NCBI GenBank assembly: GCA_964016885.1
Contig: OZ024741.1
Location: 287,928,001-287,992,000 of the forward strand
Length of the DNA stretch: 64,000 bases
Reading direction: 5' to 3'
Source of the DNA: Eledone cirrhosa
Lineage: Eukaryota
Part shown: positions 1 to 60,760 of the stretch, piece by piece
Numbering within the stretch: position 1 is the first letter of the stretch
Layout of the letters: the number at the start of each line of letters is the position of its first letter
Program-made: the position numbers and the translations under genes
The notes under the pieces: generated by a model
The model's database searches: none
The model's input: the letters and a program-made list of their open reading frames with translations, nothing else
Told to the model about the DNA's origin: nothing

Positions 1-759
1 ACCCTCACCTTCCTTTCCAAATGAAATTTGAAAATCCCTCATCAATAATAATAATAATTGTTTCTTCTATTGGCACAAGGCCAGCAACTATCCCAGTGCA
101 TTACTGGTACTTTATTTTATCGACCCCGTAAGGATGAAAGGCAAAGTTAACCTCGGTGGGATTTGAACTCAGAATGGCAAGGGCCGTAACTCCATGCGTC
201 AAAGCATGACGTCCGACCCTCTACCAATACTGCCAATTCACCGCCCAATAATAATAATAATAATGGTTTCTGATTTAGGCACAAGACCAGCAATTGGAGG
301 GGAAGTCAATTAAATCGACCCAGTGTGTGACTGGTACTTTATTTTATTGACCCCGTAAGGATGAAAGGCAAAGCTAACCTAGGCAGGATGTGAACTCAAT
401 GTAAAAGCATGGTGTCCAAAGCTCTACCGATACGATACTGCCAATCCACTGCCATCATAAATATTAATAATAATGGTTTCTGATTTAGGCACAACACCAA
501 CAATTGGGAGTGGTGGGGAGTCAATTAAATTGACCCCAGGGAGTCTTTATATTAACTCTGTAAGGATGAAAGGCAACAAAGAGCTGTCTGTTGATCCCAT
601 ATTCATGCAGAGCCTTCCACATTAAGACTGTGGAATATGGTCATATGCCTTTCTGAGGTCCATGTAACAAACATCTTAGCAACACTCCCACGATTTCTCA
701 AAGATCTGCTGCAGAAATTAAAAGAAAGGCACTGCCTATGTTTTTTTCAAATGTTTCTG

Positions 760-11743: not shown

Positions 11744-12234
11744 CCCTCTTCCTGCTATATCAAGCGTTAACCTAATATATCCCTTCCATATACTGTACCG
11801 ATTGTGTTGTTATTTCTGTTTACCTTTTACATATATATATATATATATACACACACACCTGGGTATATGCACACGTTAAGTGTTTGTATTTGTAACAAAA
11901 ACTTTTAATGTAAATTTGCAAAAAAAAAGGTCAATTGTTTTTCTTCAAGGACAAGTATTGATATTTAACTTGGTTTAAAACTTAGAATTCCAGTGGTAGC
12001 CGAGTATATAAAGTTATAATGTTTATGACTTGCCTGGGGTTGTTAGAAAAGGTAGACTAAATAAATTATTTATTAATTTCTAACTAGGAATCGAAACTTA
12101 GTCTAAGGTTCGATAGCCCGACACTTAACCACGCTAACACGCGACGTTTTCCAAGGGTAAATAATGACAAGATAAAAAAATAATTTAGCAAGGGAGATCA
12201 CTCTATTTCATCACTGCTACCCTCTTTAACAAAG

Positions 12235-13500
12235 ATGGCCTCCTCTATATTGTGTGCGGTACGTACTTCGTTTTCTATTTTGCGTCCTTTACATTTATGT
12301 CACAATCCGTCTGTATTACCGCTGAAGAATACACGGTATCTTCCGATCCTAGGAAGCATTACCGATATCCGTTTCACTTCTTTTTTCAAACGTGTTCCCG
12401 CTGATCGTCTCTGGGAGAGTGTCGGTGGTGTAAGTAATGCTGGTAGGAAAAAAGGTAGAGGTCGTGGCCGAAAAAGAAAATTTGATCTGCACATCGGCCA
12501 AAATATCGGCGACGGTAAACAAAATATGATGTGGCCCGGACTCAATGCCCCTATCATAAAAGGAAGGAAACTGTTGAATGTAGAACATTTACCACCTAAT
12601 CCTGACAGACTGGAAAAAATACAGAAAGTGAGGGATCGCTTTCAAAGATCTCGTTTTTTCAAAGTACCGGCTATGCAACGTGGATGGACTGGGAGGCGGA
12701 TGCCCGGTATGAGTATAGGCCCTCCAGACCCTTTAGATGATTATAAATTTGAAGGGTTTGATACGAGAGTGTTAGAGCTGAAAACTGTAGCCAATATGAC
12801 ATCAACTCTGGGACGAAAACAAAGCTATAGTGCATTTGTTGTGACCGGAAATAAAAACGGTCTAGCTGGATTTGCTAAGGGTAGGTCAGCCTCGGCTAAA
12901 GATGCCCTGAGGAAGGCGAAAAATAAGGCGGCTCTACGATTACAATATGTTGAACGCTTCCAGGAACACACTCTTTGGCATAATATTTTTTGCCAGTATC
13001 GTGCAGTGAAATTTTTCGCTAAAAAAAAGCCACAGGGCTACGGTTTAACTTGTCACAGAGTCCTGAAAACTATCTGCGAAGTTATCGGCATTAAAGATTT
13101 GTACGCCAAGGTTGATAGCCACTCTAAAAATACTCAGTGTATGACTAAAGCATTCTTTGAAGGTTTGGTGCAGCAGGAAACACACCAGGAACTTGCAGAT
13201 CGAATGAAAATGCATCTTGTGGAATTTCGGAATGAAAGCGAATATTTTCCAAAGATTGTTTCTTCGCCTTCTGATGGAGAAATTTTGGATACTAAACCAA
13301 CAAACATTGACTTAGATTTTGAACATTTGTACTATAATGGGAAAAGACAATTAATAAAGAAAAAATCCAGCAAAACGAATCCATTAATGAAAAGGAGATT
13401 GTGGCTGAATTATAAACACAGAAACCAACAACAATCTAGATTGCAAAGAATTGTCTTTGGATTTGAAACACCCTGGGAAAAAAAAAACCAAGATATTTAG
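12235..13500 (+). CDS. MRPS5: Mitochondrial small ribosomal subunit protein uS5m, single coding exon
   Basis: 421-aa ORF. It has an N-terminal presequence-like region, LWESVGGVSNAGRKKGRG, RGWTGRRMPGMSIGPPDP, GFDTRVLELKTVANMT, VVTGNKNGLAGFAKG and GYGLTCHRVLKTICEVIGIKDLYAKV, matching the S5 N- and C-terminal domains of metazoan MRPS5. Confidence 0.96.
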   Translation: MASSILCAVRTSFSILRPLHLCHNPSVLPLKNTRYLPILGSITDIRFTSFFKRVPADRLWESVGGVSNAGRKKGRGRGRKRKFDLHIGQNIGDGKQNMMWPGLNAPIIKGRKLLNVEHLPPNPDRLEKIQKVRDRFQRSRFFKVPAMQRGWTGRRMPGMSIGPPDPLDDYKFEGFDTRVLELKTVANMTSTLGRKQSYSAFVVTGNKNGLAGFAKGRSASAKDALRKAKNKAALRLQYVERFQEHTLWHNIFCQYRAVKFFAKKKPQGYGLTCHRVLKTICEVIGIKDLYAKVDSHSKNTQCMTKAFFEGLVQQETHQELADRMKMHLVEFRNESEYFPKIVSSPSDGEILDTKPTNIDLDFEHLYYNGKRQLIKKKSSKTNPLMKRRLWLNYKHRNQQQSRLQRIVFGFETPWEKKNQDI

Positions 13501-37700: not shown

Positions 37701-40700
37701 TAAGGAAGGGCATCAAGCCATAGAAACCATGCCAGATATGGAATATATGAGCAAAACATGGTCACTTGACCAGTCAGGCCTCAGAACATGACAACCTCTC
37801 CAACCAATGGTAGTGAGGAAAGCAGACGTAAAATGACGAGGATGAGAAGCATGAATTGAGCTCAGTAGAGTAGTGATGCTTTATTTATTGACGACAGGCG
37901 TAAAGTGATATAACCAAATACAACAAAGTATTTTGTCTGACACTCTACCAATTCTGCCAACCAGCTACACTGTTCATTTAACAATCACAAATCCAATATA
38001 TCATATCCCAGAAGTAATTTTCTCCAGAGACTTTATGTAAATAATGATTTCTACTATAGGCACAAAGCCAGCAATTTGGAAGGAAGGGAAGTCGATTAAA
38101 TTGACCCCAGTACATTAATGGTGCTTTATTTTATCAACCTCGTAAGGGATGAAAGGCAAAACTAACCTCGGCGGCATTTGAACTCAGAACATAAAGAGCC
38201 ATAACTCTATGCTGCAAAGCATGTTGTCCGACGCTCTACAGATTCTGCCAATCCACCGCCCTTATTTCTTAGAAAATAATGAGGAATATACATTATATTT
38301 GACAACTGTGAATGTTACAAACCAAAATATAGAAATTAGAATTTGAAAAATAATACAAACCCCAAAATGTTTTGCAACATATTCTATCCAAACTTCAGCA
38401 CAGCTAATATAGTCCTGAAATCAATAAAAATACAATTAGATATATGCTTTCGTACACATACGCATAAAAATTTTATATATATAGGGACCGGGTGAATATA
38501 GACGAGATGCGATTTGGGTTTGTACCAGGAAGAGGCACCACTGATGCCCTCTTCCTTGTGAGGCAATTACAGGAAAAGTACCTAGCTAAAAGTAAGCCAC
38601 TCTACTTGGCATTTGTCGACCTTGAGAAAGCCTTTGACAGAGTTCCACGTGCTGTAATCTGGTGGGCTCTTAGAAAACTAGGAGTAGATGAACGGCTTGT
38701 GAAAGCGGTACAAGCCATGTATAGGGGAGCAGTCAGCAAAGTTAGGATTAGCAATGAGTATAGCGAGGAATTTAGCGTACAGGTTGGGGTCCACCAGGGC
38801 TCTGTTCTTAGCCCTCTCCTGTTCATCATAGTCCTGCAGGCAATAACGGAGGAATTTAAGACCGGATGCCCATGGGAACTCCTGTATGCTGATGACCTCG
38901 CACTCATAGCTGAATCTATGATAGAACTAGAGAATAAATTCCAAACCTGGAAGCAGGGACTAGAGAGAAAGGGTCTCAAAGTCAACATGACAAAGACTAA
39001 GGTCCTTGTAAGTAGACGAGAAAACAGAACCCAGATCCCCTCAGGGAAATGGCCTTGCTCAGTATGTAGGAAAGGTGTAGGTAGGAACTCCATTCTCTGC
39101 CCCAAATGCAAACAATGGGTACACAAGAGATGTAGCGGGATCTCAGGAAGCTTAATTAAGAATGTAGGATTCACATGCAGCAGCTGTGCTGAAACAGCAA
39201 GCAGCAAACAGCCACAGGAAACAAGTACCACCAATCTCTGGGAGGGCCCTGTAGAAACAGTAGACAGCTTCTGCTACCTAGGTGACCGAATTAGCAACGG
39301 AGGTGGGTGTTCAGAAAGTACAATAACTAGGGTAAGAACGGGGTGGAAGAAGTTTAGGGAACTACTACCACTGCTAGCTGCAAAAGGCTTCTCCCTCAGA
39401 ATGAAAGGCAGACTGTATGATGCGTGTATCCGAACAGCGATGTTGCATGGTAGTGAGACCTGGGCGCTGAAGGTGGAAGACTTACGTAGATTAGAGAGAA
39501 ACGAAGCCTGCATGCTCCGATGGATGTGTAACAGTAATATACGTGAACGACAAAGCATAAATGAATTGAGAGAGAGACTGAGCATAAGAGGAATCAAATG
39601 CTGTGTGCAGGAGAGGCGGTTGCGCTGGTATGGACATGTGATGCGCATGAAGGATGACAGCTGCATAAAAAGGTGCAGAGCACTAGAAGTTGATGGAAAC
39701 CGCGGAGTGGGGAGACCCAAGATGACCTGGGATGAGGTGATAAAAGCCGACCTCACCCAATTACACCTCTCAAAGACAATGACACACGACCGTGACCTCT
39801 GGCGTCACGCAGTAATACAGAGTACCCGACCTCCCATGAGTACATGCTGAAGCATATAAACAATATGCCCCCACACCCCCTACCGCAAGGTGGTCGTAGA
39901 GGTGCCACGGCAAAAAAGCACCCAGCCCACACTGTAAAGTGGACGTGTAGGCGCCACGAAAAAGCACCCAGCACTCACTGTAAGAAAGGGCATCCAGCTG
40001 TAGAAATCAAGCCAGATCAGTTCCTGTATGAGCAAGGCATGGTCAGCCGACCAGACACTGCACACAACAGGACAACCCGTCTAACCCATGCTAGCGTGGA
40101 AGAACGGACGTAAAACGGTGATGATGATGATGATGATATACACACTCACATATGTATATCAAGACTCATACAATGTTCACTTTCCTGACATTTGTACATC
40201 ATTCTATGTACTATACATGCAACTTTGATGAGTTGTAGTGCCCCTAGCACTGTACACAATAATTCCATTATTATTTTATATATATATATATATGGTTAGA
40301 GTTACATTTTGTTTACAAACCAAAGAATTTAAGAGTTTAAGGCATTTAATAACTGACAATTGTTTCTACCCAGGTTGTGCTACATACAGTAAATAATTTT
40401 ATTCAACAATTTGCCATTAGTGAGCATAGACCTTGGGTGTCATCACAGTTTAATTAAAATACTGATACAAGTCACTCAGGAAAAAAAATTAGAAGAGATA
40501 ATATATATATTACTCATCAAAGTATTAAGATAAAAGTTTACAGTTAGAAATACAGTTCAAAAATATTGTAGTCTGAAAGAAATATATTGTTAGTTGTGTT
40601 TTAGAAACAATTGTCAGTTATCAAATGCCTTAAACCTTTAAATTCTTTGATTTGTAAACAAACTATAAGTATATAACAGCTCTGCATGATCCTATCATTG

Positions 40701-43700: not shown

Positions 43701-46700
43701 TCCACTGAAATTTCCTGGCATTTTTTCCTCCAGCGGTCATTGCCCATGCACATCACATGTCCATACCAATGCAGTTTTCCCTCCTGCATACCACCTTGGA
43801 TTCCTCTTAAACCCAGTTTCTCCCTCAGCTTATCCAAACCTGCCTTTCTCTCACACTGACATTGCACATCCAACAAAGCAAGGTTGCTTCATTTCTCTCC
43901 AGTCTATGCATGTCCTCTGCAGTCACAGCCTGTTCACTACCATGCAGCATTGCACTTCGCACAGAGGCATCATACATACATCCTTTTGTACATAGAGAGA
44001 AACCTTTTGTCAACAGTGGGAGCAGCTCTCTAAACTTCTTCATTCCAATCCTTATTCTAGCTATTATACACTCAGCACACCTTCCTCTGCTGCTAATTAA
44101 GTCACCTATATAGCAAAAGTTAACAGCCACTTCTATGACCCCATCCTATGACTGGAAAAAGTTTATATCATTGGCACTCTTCCTCTCGATTACTCCTGCA
44201 CATTTTCAACAGGTAAAGTTCTCCCTTCCCATTAGTCTACTCATTATCCCACTACATCTTTTGTGTACCCAAGATTTACATTGTGTACATTGTATGGAGT
44301 TTATGCCTACCCCTTTTCTACATATGCAACAGGGCTACTTTCCTGAGGGGATCAAGGTCTTATCTTCTTTTCAATATATCATCATCATCATTTAATGTCC
44401 ACTTTCCATGCTAGCAACGTTGTACAGGTCTACATAGACTAAGTCAGTACTGAAGCAGGATTGCTTACCTCCCAGACAGGATGGGATGTGGGGTCTGCAT
44501 CTCACATTTGGTCTCACACACACATATATATATGTAGTTTAGGGATTGTAACATTAAGTTACTGTTTGTTCACCAAAGGGTGCACTTGATGCATAGTTTC
44601 CTGTACGTACTTAGTGGTTGTACTAGGCAGGGTGTAATAATAAGTATGGACGAGGTGTCAAGTTTTCATTAAGTTTATTCAGGTGTGATATGCATTTCGC
44701 GATTGAGCAGCTCAAAGTTCGATTGCTATCGATCGGACCCAACTCTGGAATCAAAAGCTCATCAGACTTCTGTTTGCTTAATTAAGCAAACATTGAACCT
44801 TGAGCTGATCAATCACAAAACACGCGTCACACCTGAATAAACTTAAAGAAAACTTTACACCTCGTCCAAACTTATTATTTATATATATATACGTCCCTTT
44901 ACGATCCGAGTTCAAATCCCACCGAGGTTGACTTTACCTTTCATCCTTACGGGGTCGATAAAATAAAGTACCAGTAATGCACTGGGAAATTGCTGGCCTT
45001 GTGCCTAAAGTAGAAACAATTATTTATATATATATATATGATGATGATGTATGTATAGTATATTTGGCAATATACCGTATCATTATCATCATCATTTTAG
45101 TCCGCTTTTCCCTGCTTGCAAGGGAATTAAAAACATTTTAAAGACCATACGCTATAAGTTTTAAAGTAGTGACTATGTCACTTACTTACTTTCGGCGAAA
45201 GAAGGGAGAGAAGCTGACAGTCTGTTTCACGCTGGTTGGCCTTCATCAGAGCCACGCACTCCCCTGCTTCTGCCGAAAATTATAGAAGCTGGATTCTTAT
45301 AGAATTCCAGTAATAATCAGGAGCTGATTATACAGAGCGATTACCAGTCCAGCAAAAATTAGGTGTTAGGATTGGTGCTCTGAAATAGCAATGTATACAT
45401 GAATATATGTATAGTATATTTAGGCAATGCTGATTATTACTGGAATTCTAGAAGAATCCAACTTCTATAATTTTCGGCGGAAGTAGGGGAGTGCGTGGCT
45501 CTGATGAACGCCAACCAGCGTGAAACAGACTGTCAGCCTCTCTCCCTTCTTTTGCCAAAAGTAAGTAAGTGATTACTTTAAAACTGATAGCATATGTTCT
45601 TCTAAATGTTTTTAATTAAACATACGGTATATTGCCAAATATACTATACATACATCGCTATTTCAGAGCACCAATCCTAATACCTTATATATATATATTA
45701 CATATATGTATATATATAAAAGGAGGTGTTGTAGCTTGCTTGAAGCATTGTGTAAAATTAAGAAAAAGTTAACCTCAGCAGGATTTGAACTCAGACCGTA
45801 AAGGTACGCAACTCTATGCTGCAAAGCATGGTGTCTGACCCTCTACCGATACTGCCAATCCACCACCCTAAATGTAATAATTGTTTCTACTTTTTGGCAC
45901 AAGGCCAGCAATTATCCCAGTGTATTACTGGTATTTTATTTTATCGACCCTGTAAGGATGAAAGGCAAAGTGAACCTCTGCGAGATTTGAACTCAGACTA
46001 TAAAGGGGCGTAACTCCATGCTGCAAAGCATTGCATCTGACCCTCTACCGATACAGCCAATACAACTCTCTAAATATAATAATAATTGTTTCTACTTTTG
46101 GCACAAGGCCAGCAATTACCCAGTGTATTACTGGTACTTTATTTTATCGACCCCGTAAGGATGACAGGCAAAGTTAACCTCGGTGGGATTTGAACTCAGA
46201 ATGGCAAGGGCCGTAACTCTATGCATCAAAGCATGGCGTCCGACCCTCTACTGATACTGCCAATCCACCTAAATATAATAATAATTGTTTCTACTTTTGG
46301 CACAAGGCCAGCAATTACCCAGTGTATTACTGGTACTTTATTTTATCGACCTGTAAGGATGAAAGGCAAAGTTAACCTCGGCGAGATTTGAACTCATAAT
46401 GAAAAAGGCCGTAACTCTTTGCGTCAAAGCATGGCATCCGACCCTCTACCGATACTGCCAATCCACAATAAAACCCCATAAGGCTCACCTGTTGCAATGA
46501 TCGTTGGTCTTCTTTAGAATTTGTTCCAATGTCTCAGAGGTGGCATCATGAGCCAAACACTGTAGTAGCCAATCAAGAGCAGGAGAATATAGGGTTAAAT
46601 ATTTAGGGGTCTCCAGTTTTTGTCGAGCTAGCACATTCTGTACACCATCTTCATGAATCTAGAATTTTGGGTTCAAATTGAACGAGTAAAGTGAGTGGAG

Positions 46701-59202: not shown

Positions 59203-60760
59203 TCATTATCATCATCGTTTAACATCCATCTTCCACGCTAGCATGGGTTAGATGGTTTTGTTCCATTTGATGTGGGAATGGTCGGGAGACCATGTCTCGC
59301 TCGTACGGAAGCGTCTCTGGCTGGATGCCCTTCCTAACACCAACCACATTTACAGTCTGAACTGGGAGCCTTTTTACCGTGTCTCCTACACGGCCACCTT
59401 ACAGTGTGGACTGTTCTGTCATCGATACAGTGGACGGAATGGAGAGGGAGGGTGGGGTAGGGGGTGTACATTGAGTTAAGAGGTGCCTACTGACTGTAGG
59501 TTTGTATGCAATGGTAGTCACGTCTTCTGTACAACTGCATGGCGCCAAAGATCTCGATCCAGTGTCATTGTCTTAGAGAGGTGTAGGTGGACAAGGTCAG
59601 TTTTTATCCCAGGTTTTTCTTGGTCTACCCACTCCGCAGCTTCCATCAATTTTCATTGCCCTACACTTTTTTATACAGCTGGCGTCCTTCATATGCATCA
59701 CATGTCCATACCAACGCAATCTCCTCTCCAGAACACAACATTTGATACCTCTTATGCTTAGTCTCTCTCTCAATTCATTTATGCTTCGCCGTTCATGCAC
59801 ATTACTATTACACATCCATCGAAGCATGCAAGCTTCATTTCTTTCTAATCTACGCAGGTCTTCAGCACACAGTGCCCAAGTCTCGCTACCACATAATATC
59901 GCCGTTCGTATACATGCCTCATACAATCTGCCTTTCATTTTTAGAGAAAAACCCCTTGTGGTCAACAGCGGTATTAGCTCTCTGAACTTTTTCCCTCCCG
60001 TTCTAACTTTGGCTACTACACTTTCAGAGCACCCTCCTCCACTGCTGATTTTGTCACCCAGGTAACAGAAGGTGTCTACTATTTCTATAGGACCATCTGG
60101 GCAGTTGAAGAGGATATCATCCAGTGGGTCCTTGCAACTTGCTGCACCTGAGCATCGGCCACATATAAAATCTACATTCTTAGATAGCTTACCTCTGATA
60201 CCACTACATCTTTTATGCACCCATATTTTGCATTTGGGACATGGAATAGAGTTTCTGCCTATTCCTTTCTTACACACTCAGCATGGCTATTTCCCAGAGG
60301 GTACCTGTGCCTTATTCTCCTTTCTGCATACTAGAACCTTATTCTTAGACAAGTTGACTCTAAGGCCTTTTCATTCAAGGCCATGCTTCCATGTTTGGAA
60401 CTTCCTCTCTAGTTCAGCCATAGATTCAGCTATGAGAGTTAGATCATCTGCATATAGAAGTTCCCATGGGCAGCCAGTCTTAAACCCCTCTGTTATAGCG
60501 TGAAGGACAATTATAAACAGCAGGGGGCAAGAACGGAGCCCTGGTGTACCCCTACCATTACACTAAATTCATCACTATATTCTTCGTTAATTCTAACCTT
60601 GCTGACTGTTCCTCTATACATGGCTTATATAGCTCTCACAAGCCATTCTTCCACTCCTACTTTTCTAAGAGCCCATCAGATTAAGGTGCGAGGGACTCTG
60701 TCAAAGGCCTTTTCCAGGTCAACAAAAGCTAAGTAGAAGGGTTTACTGTTAGCCAGGTAG
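59203..60760 (-). mobile_element. RTE-clade LINE, 5'-truncated and frameshifted
   Basis: Same RT/PHD family as 38492 (ORF 59597-60277 and flanking frames); (GAT)n tail at 59203-59216; inserted in (TA)n. Confidence 0.93.

Follow-up and report, generated by a model that had tools for sequence, protein, structure and literature searches.

What kind of element places two hammerhead ribozymes on opposite strands of one short interval, and from what sort of RNA was it copied? The question is raised by element F, which occupies positions 45046..45685 of a 64,000-nucleotide stretch of the Eledone cirrhosa genome (GenBank assembly GCA_964016885.1, contig OZ024741.1, forward-strand positions 287,928,001 to 287,992,000), here called the window. 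The original prediction described F as a hammerhead monomer with a tail-to-head junction, such as reverse transcription of a circular or tandem RNA would leave, and offered non-LTR retrozymes or the partial tandems (pLTRs) of Penelope-like elements (PLEs) as its alternatives. Its text omits the head-to-head inversion: F consists of two inverted copies of one sequence, joined at 45429. We conclude with good confidence that F is a head-to-head copy of a dispersed 316-nt hammerhead repeat, likely inserted in trans by a PLE reverse transcriptase (RT) and GIY-YIG nuclease. The features of the locus are as follows, with family positions (+) counted from the ribozyme cut site.

45046..45428, minus strand: left arm, some 1.1 monomers long, its 5' truncation falling at +105
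45430..45685, plus strand: right arm, about 0.87 monomer, 5'-truncated at +212, with its 3' end at the second preferred site, about +170
45429, no strand: head-to-head junction, one extra base separating the two truncated 5' ends
45497..45538, plus strand: right-arm type I hammerhead, core CUGAUGA at 45501-45507, stem II at 45508-45521, predicted cut after 45534
45212..45253, minus strand: left-arm type I hammerhead, core CUGAUGA at 45249-45243, cleavage predicted after 45216, stem II interrupted by a G-G mismatch
45358..45428, minus strand: the 3'-end region in its upstream copy (the first "tail"), continuing into the monomer that follows
45081..45124, minus strand: later insertion of 44 nt, the ATG-repeat 3' end of another dispersed repeat, with 4 bases replaced
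45657..45685, plus strand: "tail" of about 28 nt, corresponding to the interval from the first preferred 3' end to the second and seen only at the right end
45025..45045, no strand: left target flank, TA and ATC microsatellite
45686..45719, no strand: right target flank, TA microsatellite

The 3' end of the left arm falls in the first of the two preferred zones (here +129 to +142, the microsatellite blurring the exact point), and the right arm carries deletions of 8 nt and 12 nt. As had been predicted, the minus-strand arm runs past one monomer, through the hammerhead and into the same tail again, and the direct repeat expected at about 45053-45070 and 45408-45427 was found at 45047-45071 and 45403-45428 (92% over 26 nt). 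The monomer, given earlier as about 310 nt, measures 316 nt; the repeat spacing is 356 because a net 40 nt of later insertion is added to it. The inserted 44-nt repeat piece has four more matches in the window. Copying from a circular or tandem RNA is supported, but the junction is not evidence for a circle, because it lies about 105-140 nt past the cut, at a preferred 3' end, and a linear tandem gives the same DNA. It is the preferred 3' end region read twice rather than the ribozyme junction, and thus cannot separate circle from tandem. Since the target is microsatellite, target-site duplications are unreadable in F.

We considered the possibility that the palindrome is an assembly artefact. 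Short-read contigs from three runs of one sample hardly cover the junction, if at all, and no contig crosses the whole stretch, although this is uninformative in a repeat. The two arms differ at 18 of 237 positions, plus indels, their flanks differ too, and the same architecture recurs at 36 of 85 family loci. That the palindrome is an artefact, or that the hammerhead is a chance motif (considered below), is in our estimation very improbable.

F is bordered on either side (44883-45034 and 45714-46466, in tandem on the right) by copies of an abundant repeat some 200 nt long, which has 39 matches in the window. At 44636-44879 there is a MITE-like element of 244 nt, single in the window, with 88-nt inverted ends (85% complementary) and TA-rich flanks. 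Elsewhere in the window are an intronless 438-aa frame for uS5m, mitochondrial ribosomal protein S5 (12184-13500, plus strand), whose best named matches, from Octopus sinensis (82%), Callistoctopus minor and Argonauta, place the host among the octopods, and two LINE-type reverse transcriptase fragments (38468-39850, plus strand; 59597-60277, minus strand) that are related to each other and include a cysteine finger of PHD-like type.

A loose hammerhead core pattern matches the window exactly twice, compared with 0.03 matches expected, and none of 100 shuffles reaches two. F has the CUGANGA, GAAA and NUH core elements, three stems and an open stem I that define type I. The predicted cut positions in F follow from standard hammerhead numbering and cleavage rules. 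The right-arm motif had been called a textbook hammerhead, at 45480-45551. Its core and the pairing of stems I, II and III bear this out, stem I reaching about 45470-45562; the description is too generous in other respects, as stem II begins with A-U and not G-C, stem III has just 2-3 bp with a near-palindromic loop, and the minimum-energy fold is predicted to sequester the core away from its active shape. In the left arm, stem II has the G-G mismatch noted above. The chance-motif explanation draws on the Rfam results: the sole hammerhead match in a local scan, Hammerhead_HH9, scored 27.2 bits, below the cut-off of 52, and a scan of the whole window reported no hammerhead. MicroRNA matches from Rfam were rejected, as they reflect only hairpins and TA repeats.

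Against a chance motif we set the covariation of the stems. Among eight sequences, a small related set of distant sister repeats plus one unrelated hammerhead repeat, seven of 11 stem pairs change on both sides, including a swap of C3-G8 for U3-A8, and the covariation score in this set exceeds all 500 shuffles and all slid controls. Because the stems have been kept by compensatory changes, we conclude that selection has acted on the ribozyme fold in source copies. Within the F family the ribozyme is conserved no better than the rest of the monomer, as expected since the copies are decaying.

The family monomer is non-coding, with a GC content of 0.396 and one type I hammerhead per unit. By eye, an ORF from the AUG inside the ribozyme core meets a stop after 22 codons. 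A first look at the genome gave 2753 candidates and 70 scored matches. The family is dispersed, with 444 exact matches to a 25-base ribozyme core, 90 to a 41-nt sequence and 158 to a 52-nt motif downstream. At about 4% divergence, the 444 core matches suggest some 1200 ribozyme copies in the genome. Copies differ from the family majority at 3.8% of positions outside CpG and 9.7% at CpG. A metagenome scan with the ribozyme core returned no matches.

Related and unrelated hammerhead repeats were also seen. Sister families (seen at L002, 1170-1565, and at L175, L228 and L230) are 78-87% alike, with rewritten hammerheads (the U3-A8 core) and similar 3' end sites; at L002 a sister unit is in tandem with an F unit. 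In a subfamily, L232-L237, stem II starts from a mismatched U-U pair at its base, and the cut site reads GUU in place of GUC. L101 (6900-8200) holds a second, unrelated type I hammerhead repeat with a spacing of about 511 nt, TA tracts inside the unit and an inverted piece at its 5' end.

Loci were chosen by the motif downstream of the cut, so as to avoid selection by ends. Of its 158 matches 100 were listed, and 90 loci were examined, leaving 85 after removal of five duplicates; the 10 listed matches left out were eight rows in loci of an earlier set and two second matches in one region. The resulting sample favours less mutated copies and covers five contigs. Among 129 arms, with class limits drawn after inspection of the histogram, 68 end at +116..143 (mode +138; ends near +129 are common), 48 at +158..180 (mode +168) and 13 elsewhere, while none ends at the ribozyme cut. 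Of the 116 classed 3' ends, 86 are followed by a TA run and 99 by a microsatellite of any kind. The 5' ends are evenly spread: of 116 arms, 82 cross the cut, 31 fall short of it and three have their 5' end no more than 5 nt away.

Head-to-head inversion occurs at 36 of the 85 loci. Where both ends could be classed, 25 of 27 head-to-head loci have one arm at each 3' site (p about 3e-6), the other nine of the 36 inverted loci having an unclassed end and standing outside this count. Adding three inverted loci among the skipped rows makes the count 27 of 30, and in the earlier set, the first 60 loci, eight of nine inverted copies had one arm at each site, F included. The tail is borne by either arm, in a 14 to 11 left/right split. 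In one exception to the two-end rule, L004, the second site is used by both arms, and an identical 147-nt piece of flank is present as an inverted duplication. At L231 (1171-5325) about 4.2 kb of non-coding DNA separates two family arms that obey the rule; this DNA was either captured in trans or inserted later.

Could the inversion instead come from the snap-back of a single cDNA, or from a later duplication at the DNA level, with F moving as a DNA hairpin or MITE? Overlaps of 1-6 nt are present at some inversion junctions, in-register arms share more variants than unrelated loci do (22% vs 6%), and one locus includes 147 nt of flank in its inverted duplication. A snap-back, however, predicts that the second-site arm always extends further upstream, whereas in 17 of 25 loci it is the first-site arm that extends further. 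Nor do the lengths of the two arms correlate (rho -0.22, p 0.30). For these two reasons a single snap-back cDNA is disfavoured. In addition, 49 of the 85 loci are not inverted, and the 5' ends are random. We regard this whole class of explanations as improbable.

The marks of F and its family, namely partial tandems, random 5' truncation, an inverted truncated copy, a one-sided tail and TA or AT-rich targets, are those of PLEs, and F is therefore likely to be moved by PLE enzymes. Earlier descriptions of PLEs give partial tandems, copies that are inverted and truncated, and a one-sided tail of 30-40 nt among their marks (PMC8557442, PMC3846280). In a study of a purified anole PLE, the protein, a predicted dimer, cuts both strands at AT-rich DNA and has no need of hammerhead cleavage; it starts copying the RNA at either of two neighbouring internal sites, by which the genomic tail is defined (PMC11167929).

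Mobilisation of F might then proceed as follows. A PLE protein, probably a dimer, would cut both strands in TA-rich DNA. Each cut DNA end would then prime cDNA synthesis from within the RNA, with the first site serving one end and the second site the other. Both cDNAs would stop at random points and be joined 5' to 5', that is, head to head. We put forward tentatively, at somewhat less than even confidence, a broader proposal in two parts: that PLE integration is two-ended and asymmetric, a dimer priming the two ends of a cut microsatellite from two different start sites, separated by about 30 nt and often lying on one tandem RNA; and that animal hammerhead retrozymes parasitise this process, having retained nothing but the ribozyme and the structure of the start sites, so that they would require neither a monomer circle nor homology to any living PLE. 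Against two-ended priming from distinct sites, the purified anole PLE showed no start-site difference between strands (PMC11167929).

Autonomous elements of the same genome served as a control. The host genome is rich in PLEs, with many ORFs that have RT and GIY-YIG domains. In one abundant autonomous RT and GIY-YIG family, a 40-nt tail is found on one arm only in eight of eight head-to-head pairs, and both arms of these pairs run into TA repeats. The tailed arm is the left one in all eight. A second autonomous family yielded one pair with unequal ends (L106), and a third one pair (L096) with apparently equal ends on both arms in the sequence stretch inspected. A very abundant young PLE family (L111-L140, L251-L266), with ORFs of about 900 aa that are 94-96% identical, inserts into TA targets, has a tail of 40 nt on one side and contains a hammerhead-like motif of the minimal form.

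Sequence comparison gave no partner for F, and this counts against the PLE model. Among 80 PLE loci, a small part of the PLEs in the genome, no sequence was common with F except for independent F copies nearby, and six PLE 3' regions scored against F within the range of shuffles. F has no ORF with RT and GIY-YIG domains, and none of 170 family loci has a PLE ORF placed upstream of an arm as a parent would be; four of the 170 have unrelated PLE pieces in their flanks. F is non-autonomous. Two parent candidates were rejected: at L062, where a GIY-YIG ORF ends 670 nt upstream of the family copy, that copy is a separate inverted insertion in the TA run of the PLE, and the inverted pair at L231, 4.6 kb apart, has no PLE ORF inside.

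A different relationship would make F only the pLTR of an autonomous PLE, the short partial tandems being 5'-truncated copies of such an element. Every insertion mark is PLE-like, the genome has PLEs in plenty, and Xenopus retrozymes match pLTRs, according to the accessible text of a preprint (bioRxiv 10.64898/2026.07.22.740005). An autonomous source, however, would place an ORF upstream of the repeat, and upstream of the arms there is only further monomer, up to about 2.6 units, and never coding sequence. This largely refutes the pLTR explanation for the present copies, and we consider it unlikely; a distant pLTR ancestry of F is possible.

If a PLE moved F, as we favour, was the template a circle or a tandem? 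Since the template must have been intact across the cut, with more than one unit read, it was either an uncleaved tandem transcript or a religated circle. An arm exceeds one monomer at 36 of the 85 loci, so that the proposed refutation, other copies lacking the tail-to-head junction, did not materialise. Two or more hammerheads in the same direction, head to tail, are present at L008, L026, L036, L047, L232 and L233; F itself has two on opposite strands and no same-direction pair. The tandem arrays that the original prediction had suggested seeking did not turn up as long arrays in the loci inspected, the longest arm being about 2.6 monomers.

A template that was strictly a circular monomer, cut out by two hammerheads, ligated and then read by rolling reverse transcription, would be compatible with PLE mobilisation. 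Arms pass the cut freely, successive units agree at one polymorphic site in eight of eight cases, and mussel repeats of the same type form circles (available text of PMC7229834). At a second site, however, tandem units disagree in three of nine cases. The circular monomer folds far better than shuffles (z -7.3, reached by 0 of 100), but the linear form folds equally well (z -7.3), and the predicted fold would block the catalytic core.

Shared mutations were compared in a three-way test over 1740 triple-covered positions. Fifteen variants are common to two tandem units only, as a circle would have it, although 11 of these come from L233, apparently a recent local duplication; six are in terminal units only, one shows another pairing and seven are in all units. 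Five of the six terminal-only variants come from L231 and L232, where the terminal units of both arms share changes absent from the upstream unit, and a single-unit circle cannot give this unless there was later conversion. Taken together, the shared mutations suggest that two loci were copied from a mixed tandem template and that in two further loci the units were identical, although gene conversion after insertion could mimic either pattern. We slightly favour a linear or multimeric tandem template, and judge the strictly monomeric circle somewhat less likely than not.

The choice between retrozyme and PLE partial tandem turns out to be no choice: both labels are supported, and they are not alternatives, because F combines retrozyme anatomy with PLE insertion marks. 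F has a unit in the 150-400 nt range, GC below 45% and a type I hammerhead, the DNA-level signs of a retrozyme. At this level F works like a non-autonomous PLE and fits the definition of a non-LTR retrozyme; it is one copy of a known kind of element.

Metazoan non-LTR retrozymes have been described from mussel, coral and axolotl (Cervera and de la Pena 2020, PMC7229834). As far as the accessible text of that paper goes, F resembles them in having a unit that codes for nothing, measures about 300 nt at 40% GC and includes a single type I hammerhead; read-through from head to tail, an RNA that folds strongly (predicted in F) and PLEs in the same genome are also shared. F differs in occurring mostly as dispersed fragments of 0.3-2.6 units and not as long arrays and in its predicted core-blocking fold, and the frequent head-to-head inversions and two fixed 3' ends are not in the description given in those parts of PMC7229834. 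With EN+ PLEs of the Penelope/Poseidon and Neptune types, as described in the available text of PMC8557442, PMC3846280 and PMC11167929, F shares partial tandems, the inverted 5'-truncated copy, a 30-40-nt tail at one end, AT-rich or TA targets and two adjacent internal start sites downstream of the hammerhead. Unlike them, it has no ORF and has an extended stem I instead of a minimal hammerhead; nor does it match in sequence the PLE families sampled.

The 2026 preprint argues, in its accessible portion, that animal retrozymes are non-autonomous PLE derivatives (bioRxiv 10.64898/2026.07.22.740005). The Xenopus retrozymes there have the same proposed relationship to PLEs and a similar unit size, but that link rests on co-occurrence and pLTR homology in vertebrates, while ours rests on insertion anatomy in a cephalopod, with no pLTR homologue of F found among the PLEs sampled. 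MRC1 and other non-autonomous Chlamys PLEs of Chlamydomonas are likewise non-autonomous and make head-to-tail multicopy insertions with pLTR-like ends; as far as the available text tells, they resemble autonomous families at the 3' end, unlike F, and their clade is without a canonical hammerhead (PMC8557442). A squid genome paper includes, in its accessible text, 235 hammerhead annotations without analysis (PMC6962438). Our search of openly available papers found no description of an octopod retrozyme or of the F family, and no count of two-end pairing.

As the element type is already known, the value of the F family is mechanistic: the earlier proposal linking PLEs and retrozymes, as its available text presents it, came from co-occurrence and homology, and F adds evidence at the level of insertions. 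The PLE tail, described in the accessible literature as optional and often one-sided, is here nearly a rule in inverted copies, both in a non-autonomous and in an autonomous family. This two-end rule likely records how PLE enzymes prime both broken DNA ends, and it predicts a specific two-ended priming reaction, testable in the existing in vitro PLE system. In addition, the 316-nt RNA offers a compact natural substrate for finding the RNA features recognised by a PLE enzyme.

One further feature of the monomer is a splice-donor-like motif at +31, 30 nt past the cut, with an acceptor-like motif at +152, between the two end sites. Splicing from one to the other opens no long frame in the monomer, as judged by eye; the two motifs are possibly a retained PLE-type intron.
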